Under the pieces are notes generated by a model that searched no databases, had not been told where the DNA came from, and saw only the letters and a list, made by a program, of their open reading frames with translations. From NCBI GenBank assembly GCA_050287605.1, contig JBNKCG010000037.1, positions 5,389 through 69,388 of the forward strand: a DNA stretch of 64,000 nt, read 5' to 3'. Within the stretch, counting starts at the first letter, position 1; every line of letters starts with the position of its first letter. The position numbers and the translations under genes are program-made. This DNA is from Gammaproteobacteria bacterium. GTDB lineage: Bacteria > Pseudomonadota > Gammaproteobacteria > QQUJ01. Of the stretch, positions 48,603 to 58,806 are shown one piece after another.

Positions 48603-49250
48603 TCACGCCAGCAGGGCCGCCACGATACCGGTGATGAAGATCCCGTCGAAAGTGCCCGCCCCGCCGATGGAGGCCATCGGCGCCCCCATGTGGCGGATGT
48701 CGTCCAGGCGCAGCAGATCGGCCCCGATCAGCACCCCCAGCGTTCCGCAGACGTATGCCAGCGGGGCGCTGGCGCCGGGATCCAACGTCACCCCCACCGC
48801 CGCCGCGGCCAGCGGCGCAACGAACAGCGGCAGGCCGATCCCCATCCCCGGGATGGGACGGCTCACCCAGCGGCAGAGCAGCGCCACCAGCGCGCTACCG
48901 ACCACGGCCGCACCGCCATGGATTTCAGTGTTGCGCAGCAGATAAAGGCTGAAAAATACCGGAATGACACAGCCCCCGGCATTGACCATTAGCAATGTCC
49001 GGCCGGGGCGGAAATGGGGCGGCAACAGGAGCGAACGGCGTCGGTACCGGTCCAGCAGACCCGGCGACGGCGGATCCGAGCGGATATAGAACAGCGGCAG
49101 ATTCACCACACTGCCCACCAGCGAGCTCAGCAGCAGCAGAAAGCCGGCGTCGGCCGAGAGGCCCAGCTTGTCGAAGGCGACGCTCAGCAGTCCGATCTGG
49201 ACCATGAACACGACCGCGACCACCAGCATCACCAGGAAGACAAGCGGCAT
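48603..49250 (-). CDS. DUF1614-family integral membrane protein
   Basis: MPLVFLVMLVVAVVFMVQIGLLSVAFDKLGLS is a typical DUF1614 N-terminus (from memory), with several TM helices. Confidence 0.6.
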   Translation of the reverse strand: MPLVFLVMLVVAVVFMVQIGLLSVAFDKLGLSADAGFLLLLSSLVGSVVNLPLFYIRSDPPSPGLLDRYRRRSLLLPPHFRPGRTLLMVNAGGCVIPVFFSLYLLRNTEIHGGAAVVGSALVALLCRWVSRPIPGMGIGLPLFVAPLAAAAVGVTLDPGASAPLAYVCGTLGVLIGADLLRLDDIRHMGAPMASIGGAGTFDGIFITGIVAALLA

Positions 49251-49300
49251 CGGGAGTGAGCATCCTTTCTGTTCGCGGGAGCGGCGCCCGCGCACCCCGC

Positions 49301-51421
49301 TTAGGCGCCGCGGGGTTGTCGTCGCGTCAGGGTAACGAATTCGGCCGCGCCGAGCGGTTTGCTGAAATGATAGCCCTGATACGCGTCGCAGCCATGCGTG
49401 CGAAGAAAGTTCAGTTGTCCCTCCTGCTCCACACCCTCCGCGATCACGTGATGGCCAAAGCGCTGCGCCATGGCGAGGATGGTCTCGACGATGGTCGCAT
49501 CGTTGATATCGCTCAAAATACCGTCGACGAAAGAACGGTCGATCTTCAACACCTCAACGGGCAAGCGTTTGAGATACATCAGCGACGAATAGCCGGTGCC
49601 GAAGTCGTCGATGGCGAAGCGAATGCCCAACTCGATCAGGCACTCCATCTTGAACGCCGCATCCTCGACGTCGTGAACCAGCACGCCTTCGGTGAGTTCC
49701 AGCTCCAGAAAGCGCGCGTCGACGCCGCTGTCAGCGATGATGGTCGCCGCGCGCTCGACGAAATCCCACTGGCGGAACTGCTTGGGGCTGACGTTCACCG
49801 CCAGGCGGAATCCCGGCCCGATGATCCCCTCTTCGCTCCAGCGGCGAATCGAGCGGCACGCTTCGCGCAGCACCCAGTCGCCCACCGCCACGATGATGCC
49901 GGTCTCTTCGGCGACGGGGACGAAGTCGCCCGGGGACACCATGCCCCGGCGCGGGTGGCGCCAGCGCAACAGCGCCTCCGCGCCGATGATCCGGTTGCTC
50001 CCGATCTCAACCTGGGGTTGGAAGTGGAGCATCAGTTCGCCGCGTCCCAGGGCGTAGTGCAGATCGGTCTCGATCTCCAGGCGGCGTGTGGCCGCCAGCT
50101 GCATGCCGGGCAGGTAGAAATGAAACTCGCCGCTGCCCGCCCCTTTGGCCCGGTAAAGCGCGGTGTCGGCCTGTTTCAGCACTTCGTCCGCACCGGAGAC
50201 GCTCATGGGAAACAGCGCGATGCCGACGCCGGCGGTGGTGCGCAACTCGTGATGGCCGACGCGAAACGGCCGGTCGATGGCCGCCAGCACCTTTTCGGCC
50301 ACCGCTTGCGCGTTCACCGCCGCGCGCTCCGCCGCTGCCGGCAGTTCGGCCAGCAACACCACGAATTCGTCGCCGCCCACCCGCGCCACGGTATCGGTGG
50401 CGCGCAGCGTGTTGCGCAAGCAGACGGCAACCGCCTGCAGCAGCGCATCGCCCATGGCCGGTCCCAGCGAATCGTTGATGGTCTTGAAGCGGTCGAGATC
50501 GATCAACAGCACCGCCCCCATGTGGTCGTGGCGCTCGGCGTTGGCCAATGCCTGCTGCAAGCGGTCACGCAGCAACCTACGGTTGGGCAGCTGGGTGAGT
50601 GGATCGAAGTAGGCCGATTGGCGCAGCTCACCGTCGCGCCGTTCCAGCATACCGAAACCGGTAACCAGCCCCGCCATGCCCAGCAGCCACAGGAATCCGT
50701 GTCCCAGAGTGAGCGCCGCCTCGCGCCCGGGCGGCCAGGCGCCGCCCGGCTCCCCCACGGGAACGCTGACGCTGACACCGCCCAGCACCTCGCCCACCTG
50801 CAGGCCCTGCCCGCCGTGACAGACCAGGCAGCCCTGCTCCACATGGCGCGGCCGCATCAGCCGATAGCGCGGCTCAGCGCCCGCCGTCACCGCTTCGCCC
50901 ACCTCGTCGACGCCACGCTGAAAACGCAGCAACGCGCGCTGCTCCCAGCCATCGGGCCGATGGTCTGGGCTGAGCGGGCGCAGGCTGGCGACGTGAACCG
51001 CGGCCCCGCCGCTGAGGTGCGGAGATTCGCCGCCGTGAAGCAGGCGCATGAAATACGAAGCGTTGGGCAGCGTGAGCGCAACAACCGGGTCGGTGGTGAC
51101 GTCGCGCTCGCGAAGAGGGTGCAGATCGGCGTCAGGAGCGGCGCCCTCCCCGGCACCGGCGTAGACCCCGCCCAGTCCCGCGACCAAGTCTCGGGCAGCC
51201 AGATCCCGCTCCAACAGCACCGCGGCCTGAGCGCGCGCCTGCGCGACCAGACCTTGTCGGTTGAGGTGTAGGTTCCAGCTCAGGGAAGCGACCACGGCGC
51301 CGGTCCACACGACCACCAGGAACCCACGCCAAAGGGACAGGCGTGACGCCTGCGCGGGATCCTTGTGGGCGGGCGTACGGCGGTCGGAGTGAGGGATGCG
51401 GCTGCGGTCGCCGTCCGTCAT
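49301..51421 (-). CDS. Diguanylate cyclase/phosphodiesterase (GGDEF-EAL) with a periplasmic heme-c-type (CXXCH) sensor domain
   Basis: TM, then a periplasmic about 200-aa domain containing CLVCHGG (CXXCH), resembling the Tll0287/DUF3365 heme-PAS sensor. A second TM precedes GGDEF (RVGGDEF) and EAL (EALLRW, DDFGTGYSS). Confidence 0.9.
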   Translation of the reverse strand: MTDGDRSRIPHSDRRTPAHKDPAQASRLSLWRGFLVVVWTGAVVASLSWNLHLNRQGLVAQARAQAAVLLERDLAARDLVAGLGGVYAGAGEGAAPDADLHPLRERDVTTDPVVALTLPNASYFMRLLHGGESPHLSGGAAVHVASLRPLSPDHRPDGWEQRALLRFQRGVDEVGEAVTAGAEPRYRLMRPRHVEQGCLVCHGGQGLQVGEVLGGVSVSVPVGEPGGAWPPGREAALTLGHGFLWLLGMAGLVTGFGMLERRDGELRQSAYFDPLTQLPNRRLLRDRLQQALANAERHDHMGAVLLIDLDRFKTINDSLGPAMGDALLQAVAVCLRNTLRATDTVARVGGDEFVVLLAELPAAAERAAVNAQAVAEKVLAAIDRPFRVGHHELRTTAGVGIALFPMSVSGADEVLKQADTALYRAKGAGSGEFHFYLPGMQLAATRRLEIETDLHYALGRGELMLHFQPQVEIGSNRIIGAEALLRWRHPRRGMVSPGDFVPVAEETGIIVAVGDWVLREACRSIRRWSEEGIIGPGFRLAVNVSPKQFRQWDFVERAATIIADSGVDARFLELELTEGVLVHDVEDAAFKMECLIELGIRFAIDDFGTGYSSLMYLKRLPVEVLKIDRSFVDGILSDINDATIVETILAMAQRFGHHVIAEGVEQEGQLNFLRTHGCDAYQGYHFSKPLGAAEFVTLTRRQPRGA

Positions 51422-51628
51422 TTATTGTTATCCCCTGCTTTCGTCACGCGGATCGATCAACGGCATACCCCGCAGTGGCCTCGCTCCCGGCCAACGCGGT
51501 CTGTCAAACGTGTCAAAGGGGATATCGGCCACCGCGGCCCAAACATTTAGGGCGCGGACGTCGGGAGTATTTCCACAGTGAAACGCGGGCGAGAGATAAC
51601 CCGCAATGCGGTCAGGCGAGCGGCGGGA

Positions 51629-51946
51629 TCACCCGCAATTGCAGGCGCGCAGAAATTGACCGGGAAGCAGCAGATTGAAGCGCGCGATACCCTCTTCTTC
51701 GCGAACGCGGTTGAAGACCTCGCAGCTCATGCAGGAGAGGCGGCTGGCAGCGAACGAACCCTGGACGATGCCGTCGCTGTAGGTGCCAGCGATCGCCCAG
51801 CAGATGCGACCACCGTTGACACCCCCGTTGAGACCGTCGGCGTCGCAGGCGGCCGCGGTGGCGCAGACCCCCAGCAGCTCTGCCGCCGCACCGCCGGGTT
51901 CACGTCCGCAGCCCTTGATCTGCCAACAGTTGAGTCGTTCGCTCAT
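51629..51946 (-). CDS. Small cysteine/tryptophan-rich protein with two CW motifs (two-CW-like metal/redox-binding domain)
   Basis: 105 aa with 9 Cys: NCWQIKGCG...CATAAAC...RICWAIAGT...CMSCEVF...ACNCG. Strong RBS ggaggagg 7 nt upstream of the ATG. Composition is unlike antisense-artefact ORFs. Confidence 0.6.
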   Translation of the reverse strand: MSERLNCWQIKGCGREPGGAAAELLGVCATAAACDADGLNGGVNGGRICWAIAGTYSDGIVQGSFAASRLSCMSCEVFNRVREEEGIARFNLLLPGQFLRACNCG

Positions 51947-52174
51947 GACACCCCTCCTCCGGTAGGCGCGGTATCCGTCCCCTGTGTTTATACCTCGTTA
52001 TGGATAGAGGGCGGACTCGAACGTAGTAGGCGAGATTCCGGCGCCGGTTGCAAACACAATATTGAATCGGGATATAGAGGGGAGTTATTGACGATTATCA
52101 GGAACAGCTCCGAAGGCGGTCCGGCGGCCCGCACAGGACGACGCTGCCCGCGCGCAATGGGCCGGCAAGTCTAG

Positions 52175-53482
52175 CTACCAGTAGCTCAGGGCGTTGGCGT
52201 AGAGCTCCGCGAGCACGGTCTGGTCCACGGGGCGCGGCGCGTTCTTCAACAGCCGCTGCTGGGCGTAGGCCCCCTCCACCAGTCCGCCGATATCGCCCGC
52301 ATCGTAGCCCACACCGCCAACGCCGTTAGGCATCGCGGTGGCACGCATCAACCCCTCCAGGTGCCGGGCCACCAACTCACCGGCATCCTCCGGGGCCACG
52401 TCGCGCACCTCGGCGCCCAGCAGCTGAGCCCCTTCCAGGTGACGTTCGGGACAGGCGCTGCCGGTAAAGCGGAACGCCGCGGGGGCGTTGACGATGACCG
52501 ACATACCGTGGGGGCAGATGGGTTCGTCCGCAGGATAGCCCTCGGGCTGGAACCCCTTCACCAGACCCGCCACCGAGTAGGACATGCCGTGGGGGATGTG
52601 GACTCCGGCATTGCCGAACGCCAGGCCGGCCAGGGTGGCGGCGAACATCATGCCGTCGCGCGCCTCGTGGTCGGCGGCGTCGGCCACCGCGCGCACCAGA
52701 AAGCGCCCCGCCAACCGCAGCGCCTCGCGGCAGCCGATGTCGCTCCAGGGGTTGGCCCCCTGGCTCATGGGCCGCAGGTGCGGCTGGTCGGGTCGCGCGC
52801 GCTGCGTGTAGGGGATGGCGGTGAAGCTCTCCAGGGCGTGGCTCAACACGTCAAAGCCGCTGGCCGCCACCACATTGGCCGGCAGCGTATAGGTGGTAGT
52901 GGGATCGATGACCGCCCGGGTGGGGCGTAGCGCGCGGTGGGCGATGCCGGTCTTGGCGCGCATCGCCAGCAGATCGAATACCGCGATGCCGGTGCATTCG
53001 CTGCCGGTACCGGAGGTGGTCGGGCAGGCGATGTGCGGCTTCAACGGCCCCGGCGGGGCGATGCCGTTGCCGATGGGCGGGTTGACGTAGTCCATGAACT
53101 CGGCCGGCCAGGTGCTGTAGAGGTTGGCCGCCTTGCAGGTGTCGATGACCGAGCCACCGCCCACGGAGACGAAACCGTCAAAATCGCCTTCGCTGGCAAA
53201 GCGTGCCGCGGCGGCGAACGAGCGGTCCGTAGGCTCGACCCGCACCTCGTCGTAGACCGCGACGTCCACCCCGGCCGCGCGCAGCGACTCCTGCACGCGC
53301 GCCACGTGGCCTTGCGCCACAACCCCGGCGTCGGTGTAGAGCGCCACCCGCCGGAGTCCCAGGACGCGCGCATCGTCGCCCACTTCGCGCAGGGCGCCGG
53401 GACCGAATTTGATCGCCGAGGCGTCGACGCTGAACACCTCATCGCCGTGCTCGGTCAGCGCGTAGTAGTGACAGCAACCCAT
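52175..53482 (-). CDS. Iron-containing alcohol dehydrogenase family protein (hydroxyacid-oxoacid transhydrogenase-like)
   Basis: 435 aa. [14 protein letters not shown](P)-binding motif and His-rich metal site ([14 protein letters not shown]...HG). Confidence 0.85.
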
Positions 53483-53523: not shown

Positions 53524-53794
53524 TTAGGGCCTGTTAACACTAGTCGCATAGGCCCTGCTGAGTCTCATTTTTTGTCCAGCAAGGCAGAATGAGCGAGGTG
53601 TAGCCCCGCTACATGAGCGAATGATAACGCCGCTGGGCGGAAAAGGAGGCTCAGCCCTTCGGGTTGCACCTGAAAACACGCCACTCGGCGTTGCTCGTCG
53701 CTCATTTGGAGTTACCAAACTTCGCTCCTCGCGCCTGGATTGGCGCGTTTTCAGGCACAACAGGACCTATGCGACTAGTGCTAACAGGCCCTAA
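53524..53794. mobile_element. MITE-like miniature inverted-repeat element (about 271 bp) with 29-bp terminal inverted repeats
   Basis: Left end ttagggcctgttaacactagtcgcatagg. Right end cctatgcgactagtgctaacaggccctaa (28 of 29 complementary). Nested internal inverted repeats (cctgaaaacacgcc / ggcgcgttttcagg). No ORF. The PilZ TAG stop lies within the right end. Confidence 0.5.
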
Positions 53795-54072
53795 GTCGCC
53801 TCTTGCGGAGGCTCCTCTACGAAGCGTAGCCCGATTCCGGTAGGTTCCAGGCGCACCACCTCCATGGTCACCACCGGCAGATCATCCACCGGGCCCTGGA
53901 CCTGGCCCTGCACCACGGTGCCCACGGGCGGGATAGGATCGCCGCTGGTGATGAGGAAGACTCCGCCATCCGACACGTCGCGGGTGGTGAAGATCACCGA
54001 ACCGATGGAGTCGTGCCAGACGCGTACCTTGATGCTGACCGCCGTGCGTAAGTGTTGTCGTTTTTCGTGCAT
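53791..54072 (-). CDS. PilZ-domain protein (c-di-GMP binding), start at MHEKRQHL
   Basis: 93 aa. RxxxR motif (RQHLR) and D-x-S-x-x-G motif (DVSDGG). Confidence 0.75.
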   Translation of the reverse strand: MHEKRQHLRTAVSIKVRVWHDSIGSVIFTTRDVSDGGVFLITSGDPIPPVGTVVQGQVQGPVDDLPVVTMEVVRLEPTGIGLRFVEEPPQEAT

Positions 54073-54152
54073 AGCGACGCCGCTGAAGTGATGTTGTCGG
54101 GTGGGCACACGATACCGCGCCCCGCGCCAAGAGTATCAGCCCGGCAAGGATT

Positions 54153-55265
54153 TTACCCCCCCGGTAGCGTGGGGAAACCGGGTCGCGGCCCGATATCGAA
54201 GCGGTCGCGCTCGTACAGCGGGCGGCTCTGCACGTAGGCGAGCAACAGCATCACCAGCGATTCCAGCGCGTCGCAATGGATGCGCTCGTAACCGTGCGAA
54301 GCGTCGATGCCGAAGCAGATGAGAGAAGTGCGCAGGTCGTTACCCGCCTCCACGGCGGCCGCGCTATCGGAACGGTAGTAGCGGAACACGTCACGCTGGT
54401 GGGGAATGGCGAACTCCTTGCACAACTCCAGCAGCCGGTGGGTGAGGTGATAGTCGAACGGACCGGTCATGTCGGCCATAGCGACGGTGACGCCGAATTC
54501 GCTGGAGTTCTGTCCCGGTGCAGTGGTGCCGTTATCAATAGTCACCATCTCGGCGACGTCCTGGTGCAGAACCGCCGAGGCGCCCGACCCCACCTCCTCG
54601 GAGATGGTGAACAGCAGATGACAATCCACCGGCAGCACGATGCCCCCCTCGCGCACCGCCTTGGCGAAGGCGAACACCACCGCCGCACCCGCTTTGTCGT
54701 CCAGGTGGCGCGAGTTGATGAAGCCGTTGTGGTGAAACTCGGGGATGGGGTCGACGGCGATGATATCGCCCACGTGAAACCCCAGCCGCATCAGGTCGGC
54801 GCGGCTGGCGCACATCTCGTCCACGCGCACCTCGACGTTGTCCCACGCCACCTTCTGGCTGTCGACCTCGGGTCCGAAGGTGTGTCCCGACGCCTTGAGC
54901 GGCAGCAGCGTGCCGCGGTAGGGGCGCTCGTCGGTAAACACCGTGACGCGGGCACCTTCGGCAAAGCGCGCGTTCCAGTGACCGATGGGCACCACCTCCA
55001 AGCGTCCGTTCTCCTTGAGCCCCTTGACCATGGCGCCCAGGGTGTCGAGGTGGGCGACAATGGCGCGATCGGGGCTGGAGCGTTCGCCGGCAATGGTGGC
55101 GCGGATGGCGCCGCGCCGCGTCAACTCGAACGGAATCTCCAGCCGCTCCAACTCATCGCAAGCCAGGTGCACGATACGGTCGGTATAGCCGGTGGGGCTG
55201 GGCGTCTGCAGCAGACGGGCGAGGATGTCCAGCAGATAGCCGCGATCGATGGCAGGGAGGTTCAT
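54153..55265 (-). CDS. M42-family peptidase of the NAGGN (N-acetylglutaminylglutamine amide) osmoprotectant system
   Basis: 370 aa. M42/FrvX-type metal ligands (IVAHLD, DDKAG, ISEEVG, HCD). Third gene of the conserved asnO-ngg-M42 trio. Its ATG overlaps the ngg stop (ATGA). Confidence 0.8.
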   Translation of the reverse strand: MNLPAIDRGYLLDILARLLQTPSPTGYTDRIVHLACDELERLEIPFELTRRGAIRATIAGERSSPDRAIVAHLDTLGAMVKGLKENGRLEVVPIGHWNARFAEGARVTVFTDERPYRGTLLPLKASGHTFGPEVDSQKVAWDNVEVRVDEMCASRADLMRLGFHVGDIIAVDPIPEFHHNGFINSRHLDDKAGAAVVFAFAKAVREGGIVLPVDCHLLFTISEEVGSGASAVLHQDVAEMVTIDNGTTAPGQNSSEFGVTVAMADMTGPFDYHLTHRLLELCKEFAIPHQRDVFRYYRSDSAAAVEAGNDLRTSLICFGIDASHGYERIHCDALESLVMLLLAYVQSRPLYERDRFDIGPRPGFPTLPGG

Positions 55266-57013
55266 GCGCGGTATTCCCGATGCAGCGTGCGTGGGGCGGT
55301 TTGCGGAAACAGCAGGTCGACGAAGCGCTGCGCCGTCGGCTGCGGTTCGTGATTGGCCAGCCCGGGCCGCTCGTTGGCTTCGATGATCACGTACTGCTCG
55401 CCGGCCACGTCGGGTACCAGGAAATCGAGCCCCACCACGGGGATGTCCAGCGCCCGCGCCGCCGCTTCCGCCGCCTCGCGCAGTCGAGGATGCAGGCGCG
55501 CCGTCACGTCGTGGATGGTGCCGCCGGTATGCAGGTTGGCGGTCTTGCGCACCGCCAGCTCGCGATTCACCTCCAGTACGTCGTCGAGCTGGTAGCCGCT
55601 GGCACGCACGCAGCGTTCCGTCTCGCCGTCGAGCGGAATGCGGCTCTCGCCGCCGGTCGCCGCCGCGCGTCGCCGGCTCTGCTTTTCGATGAGCTGGCGG
55701 ATGGTGTGGCGGCCCGTGCCGGTGACCGCAGCAGGGCGACGCACGGCCGCCGCCACCACCTCGTATCCGATCACGATGATGCGCAGATCCTGGCCCTCCA
55801 CATAGCGCTCCAGCAGTACCGTATCGCAGTGGCGACGCGCCAGCTCCACCGCCTGCTCCAGCTCCGGAGCCGCGCGAACGTCGACGCTAATCCCCATCCC
55901 CTGCTCGCCGCGCGCCGGCTTGACCACCAGTCGCTGGTACTTGTCGAGAAACGCCTCGCTCTCTGCGCGCGACGCGGCGATCTGCTGCGGCAGAACCGAC
56001 AGCCCCGCCTCCGCCAGCAGGCGGCGTGTCACGCGCTTGTTGTCGCAGCGGCTCATGGCCACCGCCGTGGTGAGCTCCGACAGCGATTCGCGGCAGACGA
56101 TGGTGCGGCCGCCCAGCGAGAGGCTGAAGTAGTTCTCTTCTGTGTCGATCACCTCCACCGCGATGCCGCGGCGGCGCGCCTCGTTGACGATGATGGTGGC
56201 GTAGGGGTTGAGTTGCTCTTCCGGTTTGGGAGCGATGTAGAGCGGTTCGTTGAAGGCGTTTTTGTGCTTGAGCGCAAACACCGGCACGCGCACGAAACCG
56301 AGCTTCTCGTAGAGGGCGATGGCGTGACGGTTGTCGTGCATCACGGAGAGATCGAGGAAGGTACGGCCGCGAGTGAGGTAGGACTCGGCGAGAAAACGCA
56401 CCATCGCCTCACCGACGCCGGGGATTCCACACTGCGGGTCCACCGCCAGACACCACAGACTGGCGCCGTTCTCCGGATCGTTAAACGCTTGGCGGTGATC
56501 GACACCGGTAACCGTGCCGACGATCTGCCCGCTGCCCACCTCTTCCGCCACCAGATAAGCGAGCGTGCGCGAATCGCGTTTCCGCCACAAAAAGCCCGGC
56601 TCCACCTGCACCATTCTGCGCTTGGCGTAGAGCGCGTTGATCGCGGCCGCATCATCGTGCGACAGCATGCGGCGTACGATGAACCCCTTGGGCACTTCGT
56701 CGCTGGGCTGATAGCGGTCCAGCCACAATCGGTAGGTGTGCGAGGGATCGAGGAACAGCTCCTGCGGCGCCATGGCGATCACCACATGGGGATCGCGCAG
56801 GTACATGCCGATGTCGCGCCGTCCCGCCTGCTCGGACTGCAGCATGCGCGCCAGCTCCACGTTGCTGGCAAAGGTGTGGGCGAAGACCAACCGTCCCCAA
56901 CCGCAATCGACGGCGATGTTGGACTCGTACTGATCCGCAGCCGGCCCCTGCAGATGGCGCCAATTCTGCACCGAGGGGGCGTTGCGGCGTTCGAAGCGGT
57001 GTTTTTTGACCAT
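55262..57013 (-). CDS. ngg: Bifunctional GNAT acetyltransferase / ATP-grasp (RimK-like) N-acetylglutaminylglutamine synthetase
   Basis: N-terminal GNAT plus a C-terminal ATP-grasp domain. Start chosen at MVKKHRF (GGGAGGG RBS 9 nt upstream). The ORF-track start at 57082 overlaps asnO. Confidence 0.85.
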   Translation of the reverse strand: MVKKHRFERRNAPSVQNWRHLQGPAADQYESNIAVDCGWGRLVFAHTFASNVELARMLQSEQAGRRDIGMYLRDPHVVIAMAPQELFLDPSHTYRLWLDRYQPSDEVPKGFIVRRMLSHDDAAAINALYAKRRMVQVEPGFLWRKRDSRTLAYLVAEEVGSGQIVGTVTGVDHRQAFNDPENGASLWCLAVDPQCGIPGVGEAMVRFLAESYLTRGRTFLDLSVMHDNRHAIALYEKLGFVRVPVFALKHKNAFNEPLYIAPKPEEQLNPYATIIVNEARRRGIAVEVIDTEENYFSLSLGGRTIVCRESLSELTTAVAMSRCDNKRVTRRLLAEAGLSVLPQQIAASRAESEAFLDKYQRLVVKPARGEQGMGISVDVRAAPELEQAVELARRHCDTVLLERYVEGQDLRIIVIGYEVVAAAVRRPAAVTGTGRHTIRQLIEKQSRRRAAATGGESRIPLDGETERCVRASGYQLDDVLEVNRELAVRKTANLHTGGTIHDVTARLHPRLREAAEAAARALDIPVVGLDFLVPDVAGEQYVIIEANERPGLANHEPQPTAQRFVDLLFPQTAPRTLHREYRA

Positions 57014-57030
57014 CTGAGGCATCCCTCCCG

Positions 57031-58806
57031 CTAACCGATCTCCTGCCCCTGCAACCACAGCTCCAGCAGTGCCACCTGCCACAGCTTGGAACCGCGCAGG
57101 GGCGTGATGTGTTGTTCGGGCGCCGCGAACAGCTCGTCAATGTAAGCGGCGTTGAACAACCCGCGCTCGCGCGCCGCCCGGTTGTCCAGCGTGTCGCGTA
57201 CGTACTCAAGAAACGACCCCTGCAGGTACTTCAGAGCGGGCACCGGAAAATACCCCTTGGGACGGTCGATCACTTCGTGAGGAATGAAATTGCGCGCCAC
57301 CTCTTTGAGAACGTGCTTGCCGCCGTGGGCCACCTTGTGTTCGGCAGGCATGCGCGCAGCCAGCTCCACCAGCTCGTGATCGAGAAACGGCACGCGCGCC
57401 TCCAAGCCCCACGCCATGGTCTGGCTGTCGACGCGCTTGACGGGGTCGTCCACCAGCATGACGGTGGTATCGAGGCGCAGCGCCTTGTCGATGGGATCGA
57501 CGGCGTCATCGCTGGCGAACTGCTCGTGCAAAAAGCGCCGGCTGTGATCGTCGCCACGCCACGTTTCACCCACCGCGCGGCAGTACTCGGCGTGATCGCG
57601 GTCGAAGAACACCCGCGCGTAGTCGCCCTCAGGATCGGCACTCTCCATCAGCGGCGGATACCAGTGATAGCCGGCGAAGACCTCGTCGGCGCCCTGTCCG
57701 CTCTGTACCACCTTGACGTGCTTGGCCACCTCGCGCGACAGCAGATAGAAGCCGATATTGTCGTGGCTCACCATCGGCTCGGACATGGCACGGATGCAGT
57801 GCGGCAGCTGCTCCAGGGTCTCGCGTGCGTCGACGCGGATCTGATGATGGCGGGTCGAAAAACGCTCCGCCACCAAGTCGGAATACCGGAACTCGTCGCC
57901 CGCCTCGTCATTGACGGATTCGAAGCCGACGGAAAAGGTGTTGAGCCCCTGCTGCCCCTGTTCGGCCAGCAGCCCGACGATGAGGCTGGAATCCACCCCG
58001 CCGGAAAGCAGCACGCCCACCGGCACGTCGGCCACCAAGCGCCGCTTGACCGCCGTCATCAGCGCATCGGCGAGCAGCGCCTGCCACTCGCCGACACTAC
58101 GCCGCCGATCGGCTTCGCTGCGTTCGAAACGCAGGCTCCAATAGCGGTGCTCGGTAGTGCGCCCATCCGGTTCGACGCGCATCAGGGTAGCCGGCGGCAG
58201 CTTGCGCGCACCGCGCAGTATCGTCAGCGGTGCCGGCACCACCGAGTGGAAGCTCATGTAGTGATGCAGCGCCACCGGGTCGACGGCGGTGTCGAGTTCA
58301 CCGCCCCGCAGCAGCGCCGGCAGCGTCGAGGCGAACCGCAGCGCACCGTCTCGCAGGCAATAGTAGAGCGGCTTGATGCCTAGCCGGTCGCGCCCCAACA
58401 ATACCCGTCCCGAGTCGCGCTCCCACACGGCAAAGGCAAACATGCCGTGAAAGCGCTGCACGAACGCTTCGCCCCAGGCGTGATAGGCCTTCAACACCAC
58501 CTCGGTGTCGCCATTGGAGAAGAAACGGTAGCCCTTTCCCTCCAGTTCACGGCGCAGCTCGGGGTAGTTGTAAATCATGCCGTTGAACACGATCCCCAGC
58601 CCCAACTCGTTGTCCACCATGGGCTGCTGGGCGTGCTCGCTCAGATCGACGATCTTCAGCCGCCGATGCCCGAACGCCAACCGCCCCTGGTGAAACTGAC
58701 CGCCGGCATCGGGACCGCGCGGCGCCAGCGCCGCGCTCATGGCGGCAACCGCGCCGTTATCGGCCAGTTGTTGATCGAAGCGAATCTCTCCTGCTATTCC
58801 ACACAC
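57031..58806 (-). CDS. asnO: Asparagine-synthetase-family glutamine amidotransferase AsnO (NAGGN pathway)
   Basis: MCGIAG N-terminal nucleophile Cys. SGGVDSS PP-loop. 591 aa. Confidence 0.9.
   Translation of the reverse strand: MCGIAGEIRFDQQLADNGAVAAMSAALAPRGPDAGGQFHQGRLAFGHRRLKIVDLSEHAQQPMVDNELGLGIVFNGMIYNYPELRRELEGKGYRFFSNGDTEVVLKAYHAWGEAFVQRFHGMFAFAVWERDSGRVLLGRDRLGIKPLYYCLRDGALRFASTLPALLRGGELDTAVDPVALHHYMSFHSVVPAPLTILRGARKLPPATLMRVEPDGRTTEHRYWSLRFERSEADRRRSVGEWQALLADALMTAVKRRLVADVPVGVLLSGGVDSSLIVGLLAEQGQQGLNTFSVGFESVNDEAGDEFRYSDLVAERFSTRHHQIRVDARETLEQLPHCIRAMSEPMVSHDNIGFYLLSREVAKHVKVVQSGQGADEVFAGYHWYPPLMESADPEGDYARVFFDRDHAEYCRAVGETWRGDDHSRRFLHEQFASDDAVDPIDKALRLDTTVMLVDDPVKRVDSQTMAWGLEARVPFLDHELVELAARMPAEHKVAHGGKHVLKEVARNFIPHEVIDRPKGYFPVPALKYLQGSFLEYVRDTLDNRAARERGLFNAAYIDELFAAPEQHITPLRGSKLWQVALLELWLQGQEIG

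Follow-up and report, generated by a model that had tools for sequence, protein, structure and literature searches.

Does a small cysteine-rich protein encoded upstream of a cyclic di-GMP (c-di-GMP) enzyme serve as the sensory partner of that enzyme? The question is raised by one locus in a 64,000-nucleotide stretch of a gammaproteobacterial genome (assembly GCA_050287605.1, contig JBNKCG010000037.1, positions 5,389 to 69,388), hereafter called the window. The gene concerned, here termed 2CW, was singled out in a first-pass annotation as a separate copy of the two-CW domain and was proposed to be a redox- or metal-sensing partner of the neighboring GGDEF-EAL enzyme. We find nothing special in the proposed architecture, and the window 2CW belongs, as an ordinary member, to a family already catalogued. 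The gene in the window is best explained as one that evolution can dispense with and that is transcribed separately, in a PilZ/HOT/2CW/heme-Cache-GGDEF-EAL neighborhood. As to its role, we lean toward a cytoplasmic, stand-alone metal- or redox-cofactor module that would act on signaling proteins in trans, a reading that we hold to be somewhat probable. The gene and its ribosome-binding site are placed as follows.

51629..51946, minus strand: 2CW gene, ATG start, 105 amino acids (aa); supported by the open reading frame (ORF) call, the NF045718 match, homologues and the substitution pattern
51953..51960 (coding strand 51960..51953), minus strand: Shine-Dalgarno sequence GGAGGAGG, 6 nt before the 2CW ATG

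Identity and conserved residues of the 2CW protein

The features from which the annotation had started can all be read in the sequence. The 105-aa ORF, preceded by a strong ribosome-binding site, encodes nine cysteines (C7, C13, C28, C34, C49, C72, C75, C102 and C104), exactly two Cys-Trp dipeptides (in NCWQIKGCG, residues 6-14, and RICWAIAGT, residues 47-55), a CxxC pair (C72-M-S-C75) and a CxC pair (C102-N-C104). The product contains no histidine and reads, in parts, MSERLNCWQIKGCGREPGG...RICWAIAGT...SCMSCEVF...RACNCG. Its assignment to the two-CW domain was confirmed by a profile hidden Markov model search. The protein scores 89.9 bits (E = 9.9e-26) with NF045718 (NCBIfam two_CW_domain), for which the cutoff is 35; the alignment pairs residues 5-84 of the protein with positions 1-80 of 80, the full length of the model. 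The score lies, by this search, far above chance expectation and identifies the window protein as a member of a catalogued, uncharacterised family. The interest of the locus rests on the two-CW family itself, which has neither a Pfam model nor a detectable relative of solved structure and which the searched literature does not mention. Six family members gave no Pfam match even at E <= 10. Full-text literature searches returned no paper naming 'two-CW' or NF045718, which is a curated domain model for which experimental characterisation was not found in the literature searched; the lack of cultured organisms is probably the reason why these searches were empty.

Conservation was read from three alignments, comprising 30 and 121 stand-alone members and 56 fused members. 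The residues C7, C13, C28, C49, C72, C75 and W50 are invariant in the 121 stand-alone sequences; W8 never varies among the 30 aligned sequences and is kept by at least 90% of those in the larger sets. N40, G42, G46, R47 and A51 are also invariant in the stand-alone alignments. The fused set has C13, C28, C49, C72, C75 and W50 without exception, and C7 and W8 in at least 90% of the sequences. The six family-invariant cysteines, spaced C-x5-C-x14-C-x20-C-x22-C-x2-C, and both Cys-Trp dipeptides (C7-W8 and C49-W50) are all kept in the window protein. The cysteines C34, C102 and C104 are not conserved in the family and are lineage-specific; because this holds for C102 and C104, the CxC pair is incidental. 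The alignments thus point to six cysteines, not nine, as the functional core of the domain. Most family members also have a ferredoxin-like Cys-Pro motif (GVCPAA). Two near-invariant residues (at least 90%), C57 and P29, are replaced by Ser57 and Ala29 in the window protein. The same is true of its nearest relatives: the homologue P0001 lacks both as well, and P0005 lacks both but has a cysteine three residues later. We regard the replacements as a lineage-specific deviation that leaves family membership unaffected.

An internal duplication of a CW-x-C unit was considered as the origin of the two motifs and rejected, since hhalign gave the N-terminal and C-terminal halves a probability of 1.9% and aligned only the four-residue CWxI.

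The 2CW gene is real. The copy in locus L001, 89% identical, differs at 60 nucleotides, 43 of them in third codon positions, and the codon changes comprise 39 synonymous and 12 non-synonymous ones. Because this divergence is synonymous-biased, it indicates purifying selection on the gene. In the alignment of relatives, the GGAGGAG site is kept in L001, L003 and L099 and reads GGAGAGGAG in L008. The protein is probably cytoplasmic; no signal peptide or transmembrane segment was seen on reading its sequence.

Stand-alone and fused forms of the two-CW domain

The stand-alone form, which the annotation had taken for an undescribed architecture, is the majority form of the family. A search for homologues yielded 326 proteins at E <= 1e-3. 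When 1.84 billion cluster representatives were searched exhaustively with a profile, 1654 two-CW clusters (50% identity) scored at E <= 1e-3 and 998 at E <= 1e-10. The 120 best homologues are all stand-alone proteins of 94-124 aa. A scan of 185,579 species-representative genomes yielded at least 499 loci with a relative; among the best 80, which were analyzed, ORF calls gave 68 stand-alone genes and 12 fusions. The best 150 cluster representatives at 50% identity include 83 proteins shorter than 150 aa, 11 of 150-189 aa and 56 of 190 aa or more. A stand-alone protein of about 100 aa is the commonest form in which the domain occurs, and several genomes carry two to four copies.

All of the best 80 loci come from metagenome-assembled genomes (MAGs), and the best genome matches extend over many phyla: Nitrospirota/Thermodesulfovibrionia, Desulfobacterota, Nitrospinota, Planctomycetota, Bacillota, Acidobacteriota and others. 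A 93-aa stand-alone homologue with 58% identity to the window protein was found in a Candidatus Hydrothermarchaeota archaeon MAG (L052, WANW01000096.1). It is the only non-bacterial match among the best 80 loci and could reflect horizontal transfer or mis-binning.

The 56 longer representatives show what the domain is joined to. The partners are HATPase_c (13) and HisKA (11); Pkinase with cNMP_binding (10); PilZ (7), Response_reg (REC, 6) and PAS (5); PP2C (4), GAF (3) and GGDEF (2); and Guanylate_cyc (2), STAS (2), HDOD (1) and a YcgR-type PilZNR (1). The two-CW domain is usually N-terminal, and it follows the partner in proteins that end REC-2CW, GGDEF-2CW or, after the signaling domain of a methyl-accepting chemotaxis protein (MCP), MCP-2CW (among P0199, P0220, P0265, P0249 and P0172). 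The statement that the domain is normally N-terminal to histidine kinases is too narrow: such fusions occur, but there are many other partners, and the domain is also placed C-terminally. Tandem double two-CW proteins were found as well (P0121, P0122 and P0123). Among the genome loci, the fusions include 2CW-PilZ and a probable hemerythrin-2CW protein (L019:4313-5125), and in L046 the domain occupies the N-terminal input position of a kinase without any other sensor. The c-di-GMP theme of the annotation is retained at the level of the family, in the fusions to PilZ, GGDEF, HDOD and PilZNR counted above, but the specific pairing seen in the window is not conserved. The PilZ protein of the window gave no phmmer match at E <= 10 to the PilZ domains fused to 2CW.

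Gene neighborhoods across the family

The genes around two-CW loci lead in the same direction. As raw counts, the gene directly upstream is Response_reg in 20 of the 80 loci (CheB in 15 of these) and GerE in 6. Directly downstream (75 loci), FlgE occurs in 10, convergently, followed by MCP (4), histidine kinase (2), HD_5 (2), PP2C (2) and PilZ (2). Second neighbors (n = 137) include CheW (12), FlgD (10), HisKA_3 (5), T2SSE (4), MCP (3) and GGDEF (2). GGDEF is not among the families matched by at least two immediate neighbors of the best 80 loci.

Particular loci illustrate these counts. In L010 and L014, a stand-alone 2CW gene ends a CheR-CheY-CheY-CheA-CheW/CheZ-CheW-CheB cluster and is convergent with flgE-flgD, and the same position at the end of a che cluster recurs in L021, L022, L030, L034, L042, L043 and others, from Nitrospirota/Thermodesulfovibrionia MAGs. 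In L009, 2CW is followed by MCP, a response regulator-SpoIIE protein, CheW and CheA. In L018, a hybrid histidine kinase without a sensor domain begins 15 bp after 2CW, an arrangement resembling a 2CW-kinase fusion divided between two genes. Taken with the fusions, the neighborhoods tie the two-CW family to signal transduction, including c-di-GMP modules; the pathways concerned are chemotaxis, c-di-GMP, Ser/Thr-kinase and two-component signaling.

Relationship of 2CW to the adjacent GGDEF-EAL gene

The question of a dedicated partner requires the other features of the locus, which are all on the minus strand.

49301..51421, minus strand: heme-c Cache (Tll0287/DUF3365, CLVCH)-GGDEF-EAL gene, 706 aa, identified with Pfam; candidate, non-obligate partner of 2CW
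51422..51628, minus strand: spacer between 2CW and the GGDEF-EAL gene, 207 bp (222-285 bp in relatives)
51947..52174, minus strand: intergenic region upstream of 2CW, 228 bp, with a block conserved among the closest relatives
52175..53482, minus strand: HOT (hydroxyacid-oxoacid transhydrogenase), iron-dependent alcohol dehydrogenase family (Pfam Fe-ADH, ADH_Fe_C)
53791..54108, minus strand: PilZ single-domain protein of the c-di-GMP receptor family (PF07238, 42.4 bits)
48603..49295, minus strand: DUF1614 membrane protein (171.6 bits)

The description of the neighboring gene was accurate in that it is co-directional with 2CW, begins 207 bp downstream and carries a CXXCH motif in a Tll0287-like domain. 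Its product matches EAL (238.7 bits), GGDEF (155.6 bits) and Tll0287-like (PF11845, 53.1 bits, residues 58-221, including CLVCH). The last domain is probably periplasmic, because hydrophobic segments flank it on both sides (about residues 27-50 and 236-259, as read from the sequence). An intact GGDEF motif, an RxxD I-site (RATD) five residues upstream of it, EAL and DDFGTGYSS can also be read, and the enzyme could therefore be bifunctional and product-inhibited. The Tll0287/DUF3365 domain has been described as a heme-c Cache domain (sCache_heme) that is NO-sensor-like when fused to signaling modules (PMC12889525). The label "heme-sensing" is thus less apt than heme-based gas or redox sensing.

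The annotation had suggested 2CW as a partner of this enzyme. Under that proposal, 2CW would be a dedicated cytoplasmic redox- or metal-sensing partner of the adjacent heme-Cache-GGDEF-EAL protein, and c-di-GMP turnover would be controlled by two inputs. In its favor, the window and its closest relatives (L001, L002-7 and L099) have the two genes side by side in one orientation, and the GGDEF-2CW and 2CW-PilZ fusions found elsewhere constitute a link of the Rosetta-stone type to c-di-GMP modules. Related gammaproteobacterial MAGs, ranked by the identity of the flanking HOT gene, provide the comparison, and three versions of the locus were found.

Version A: PilZ-HOT-2CW-Tll0287/GGDEF/EAL; the window, L001, L002-L007 and L099; HOT identity 86-88%
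Version B: PilZ-HOT-2CW-DUF1614-membrane fusion protein (MFP)-AcrB, without GGDEF-EAL; L008 and L101-L103; HOT identity 82%
Version C: PilZ-HOT-[226 bp]-Tll0287/GGDEF/EAL-DUF1614-MFP-AcrB, without 2CW; L104-L107; HOT identity 81%

The neighborhood comparison does not uphold the partnership. Loci with 2CW and no GGDEF-EAL gene (L008 and L101-103) exist beside loci with an orthologous GGDEF-EAL gene and no 2CW (L104-107). Orthologues of the enzyme occur in L001, L003, L099 and L104; that of version C is 60% identical and also 706 aa long (L104), and neither tblastn nor blastn found a 2CW remnant in the 226-bp spacer between HOT and GGDEF-EAL in L104. Each gene thus persists without the other, and co-occurrence across relatives fails. 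The absence of the ORF between conserved flanking genes in L104-107, an observation that the annotation itself had named as refuting, counts against the partnership, not against the reality of the gene. The spacing leads to the same view. Both gaps are long and vary little in length, that upstream of 2CW measuring 151-228 bp across all relatives and that downstream 207-285 bp, and where relatives lack 2CW, a self-sufficient region of 226 bp precedes the GGDEF-EAL gene; because of these long spacers and this region, 2CW and GGDEF-EAL are probably separate transcription units. Independent presence and long spacers together argue against an obligate two-protein device, and we conclude from these comparisons that 2CW is no obligate subunit of the adjacent enzyme. 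Moreover, GGDEF and EAL genes are rare near distant stand-alone 2CW genes, and the extracytoplasmic Tll0287 input of the enzyme makes a second sensor unnecessary to explain its regulation. On balance, we consider a dedicated partnership unlikely. A looser link of the window 2CW to c-di-GMP signaling is plausible, because PilZ and GGDEF-EAL genes are its neighbors and PilZ and GGDEF domains are fused to its relatives. The three natural variants (2CW with GGDEF-EAL, 2CW only and GGDEF-EAL only) offer a comparative framework for the question of 2CW and the c-di-GMP enzyme.

The region upstream of 2CW (51947..52174) probably carries the gene's own promoter, because of the size of the gap and the conserved block. 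A perfect palindrome, CAATATTG, lies at 52057..52064, about 110 nt upstream of the 2CW start, within the block GATTCAATATTGTGTTTGCAA. In the upstream alignment, the palindrome block is common to L001, L003 and L099 and is missing from the version B relatives; the palindrome may be an operator or promoter element. A simple scan of 51200-52400 found no sigma-70 consensus and no intrinsic terminator. A search of the window against Rfam gave no match at the gathering score, and a local RNA element at 2CW was rejected, the only match at E <= 1 being an implausible archaeal small nucleolar RNA (20 bits).

PilZ and HOT are the only neighbors common to all three versions. The name HOT is carried by homologues of 70-88% identity in NCBI and JGI records. 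As a metabolic enzyme, HOT is strongly conserved (70-88% identity between proteobacterial orders), so that its adjacency may be plain synteny. PilZ lies two genes upstream of 2CW, and the PilZ-HOT pair is present in L002-7, L008, L099, L101-102 and L104-107. On the other side, DUF1614, MFP and AcrB follow the GGDEF-EAL gene in the window, and DUF1614 stands between the locus and the resistance-nodulation-division efflux pair (MFP and AcrB) in all three versions.

Two further observations concern the PilZ side of the locus. An insert of 263 bp resembling a miniature inverted-repeat transposable element (53528..53790) abuts the stop codon of PilZ and is separated from the HOT start by 45 bp, whereas the PilZ-HOT gap is only 12-45 bp in relatives. 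Its terminal inverted repeats, GGCCTGTTARCACTAGTCGCATAGG, occupy 53528-53552 (+) and 53766-53790 (-) and extend to about 30 nt, with 28 of 30 positions matching. The insert also has internal inverted repeats and is present in a single copy in the window. Upstream of PilZ are osmoprotectant genes for N-acetylglutaminylglutamine amide (NAGGN; 54153..57082, minus strand), which encode an M42 peptidase (TIGR03106; score 565.8 bits, cutoff 397.75) and an N-acetylglutaminylglutamine synthetase (TIGR03103; score 892.3 bits, cutoff 569). Locus versions B and C have an ABC transporter in place of the NAGGN genes.

Proposed mode of action

According to the reading that we prefer, two-CW would be a portable accessory module of signal-transduction proteins, about 80 residues long, defined by six invariant cysteines and two Cys-Trp motifs. 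The six cysteines would hold a metal center, either an Fe-S cluster or zinc, and the occupancy or oxidation state of the metal would alter the conformation of the domain. A stand-alone protein such as the window 2CW would then pass its state to a signaling partner through direct contact, by analogy with the way in which CZB acts on chemoreceptors and diguanylate cyclases. In the window, this partner may be a c-di-GMP component, such as the cytoplasmic domains of the GGDEF-EAL enzyme or the PilZ protein. The metal cofactor, the redox or metal signal, the action in trans and the identity of the partner are all parts of the model that we infer. The lineages in which two-CW is enriched are mostly anaerobic. 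An Fe-S cluster is suggested because of the six to seven cysteines, the Cys-Pro motif of most members and these mostly anaerobic lineages; zinc, in a Zn2Cys6-type arrangement, is equally possible.

AlphaFold2 models built from 121-sequence alignments gave a pLDDT of 79.2 and a pTM of 0.67 for the window protein and a pLDDT of 77.3 for the canonical member P0008, and both show short helices and a weak region at about residues 51-70 (pLDDT 57-67). A Foldseek search with these models returned nothing from the PDB at E <= 0.001, and the sole match in a profile search of PDB sequences, the zinc domain of TFIIH p44, was not significant (E = 0.17).

Several points weigh against a metal- or redox-responsive module acting in trans. 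The AlphaFold2 models are only moderately confident. The six cysteines fit several chemistries, namely a [4Fe-4S] cluster plus a thiol pair, Zn2Cys6 or disulfides, and without C57 and P29 the window protein may differ from typical members. The neighbor counts are dominated by related Nitrospirota/Thermodesulfovibrionia MAGs, and the events that they record are not independent. In version C, the lack of 2CW means that its function at this locus is dispensable or supplied from elsewhere. Finally, a two-CW domain C-terminal to REC stands in an output or interaction position, not in the position of a sensor.

The last point leads to another explanation, in which 2CW is not a sensor at all but a structural, zinc-stabilised adaptor or output domain for protein-protein (or protein-nucleic acid) contacts, through which signaling proteins would dock on one shared target, for example chemosensory arrays or the machinery of the flagellum or the type IV pilus. 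The REC-2CW proteins place the domain where this explanation would have it, the gene repeatedly closes che clusters, converges with flgE/flgD and adjoins T2SSE/T2SSF genes, and the cysteine set is fully invariant, as in structural zinc modules; the TFIIH p44 domain, the only sequence hint from the PDB and not a significant one, is also zinc-binding. However, the N-terminal input position in kinases without another sensor (L046, and L018 as a split version) and the fusion to many unrelated output types are typical of input modules, and no common interaction target can be identified in the window locus. We judge a purely structural adaptor to be improbable, to about the same degree as the dedicated partnership.

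It is much harder to sustain the view that 2CW is unrelated to signaling and is either a small cysteine-rich precursor of a ribosomally synthesized and post-translationally modified peptide (RiPP, SCIFF-like) or a free ferredoxin-like electron carrier. The protein is small, rich in cysteine and probably monocistronic, and most members have the ferredoxin-like Cys-Pro motif. Nevertheless, the whole 80-residue domain is conserved without a leader/core split, the domain is covalently fused to kinases, PilZ, REC, GGDEF and MCP, radical-SAM or other maturase genes are absent from the recurrent neighbors, and no Pfam Fe-S or ferredoxin model matched even at E <= 10. A RiPP precursor of the SCIFF/ranthipeptide type was rejected for the lack of a recurrent maturase neighbor, the domain-wide conservation and the signaling fusions, and the explanation as a whole is very improbable. 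That 2CW is a chance open frame in GC-rich DNA that is not expressed, an idea prompted by the many spurious long ORFs that overlap real genes in this window of 64% GC and by one relative without the gene, is effectively refuted by the profile match (E = 1e-25), the hundreds of homologues found in different phyla, the excess of synonymous changes and the conservation of the ribosome-binding site.

Returning to the metal- or redox-cofactor module, we note what would follow from it. A metal or redox sensor of this kind would add a new input domain to the bacterial signaling repertoire and would explain the recurrent unknown gene that ends the che clusters of Nitrospirota. A bolder form of the proposal is that two-CW represents a structurally new class of Cys-ligated metal (Fe-S or Zn) redox sensors, an anaerobe-centered counterpart of CZB whose stand-alone forms act in trans. 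We put this forward tentatively, as a possibility that the evidence makes worth stating rather than probable. If it is true, cytoplasmic redox, O2, NO or metal status would be fed into chemotaxis, c-di-GMP, Ser/Thr-kinase and two-component pathways, and the c-di-GMP node in the window would gain a cytoplasmic input beside its periplasmic heme-c (NO-type) input.

Comparison with known systems

Within NF045718, the window protein stands somewhat apart. Most of the other members belong to MAG lineages that are mainly anaerobic, among them Nitrospirota, Desulfobacterota and Planctomycetota, whereas its host is a high-GC gammaproteobacterial MAG lineage, and it differs by Ser57, Ala29 and the three extra, non-conserved cysteines (C34, C102 and C104). 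The heme-c Cache domain (Tll0287/DUF3365) with its CXXCH motif is a feature of the neighboring GGDEF-EAL protein and is unrelated to 2CW.

Small Cys-cluster modules that gate regulators or kinases through Fe-S clusters labile to O2, NO or redox conditions are found in the N-terminal cluster of FNR, in WhiB-like proteins, in NreB and in AirS. The two-CW domain resembles these Cys-ligated sensors in its occurrence in mostly anaerobic lineages and in the ferredoxin-like Cys-Pro motif of most members. In contrast, no sequence or fold similarity to them was detected, and the cysteine spacing is different.

In the CZB domain, four helices form a bundle, and the zinc site is of the 3His/1Cys type. 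No histidine is present in the window 2CW, and the two-CW domain has six invariant cysteines and short helices; no sequence relationship exists between the two, 2CW being without a Pfam match at E <= 10, and the partner set of two-CW is wider, including Ser/Thr kinases, PP2C, histidine kinases and REC. The likeness lies in deployment, that is, in the MCP-2CW, GGDEF-2CW and 2CW-PilZ proteins, the che-cluster neighbors and the stand-alone majority. CZB, a small metal-thiol module of the cytoplasm known from H. pylori TlpD and E. coli DgcZ, is C-terminal on chemoreceptors and fused to GGDEF/EAL, and it regulates chemoreceptors and diguanylate cyclases via a redox-sensitive Zn-thiolate (PMC8262984). 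The output is chemotaxis or c-di-GMP, and in 27% of CZB proteins it is the sole domain (PMC8262984). By this comparison, CZB is the closest functional analogue of the two-CW domain, as an analogue only.

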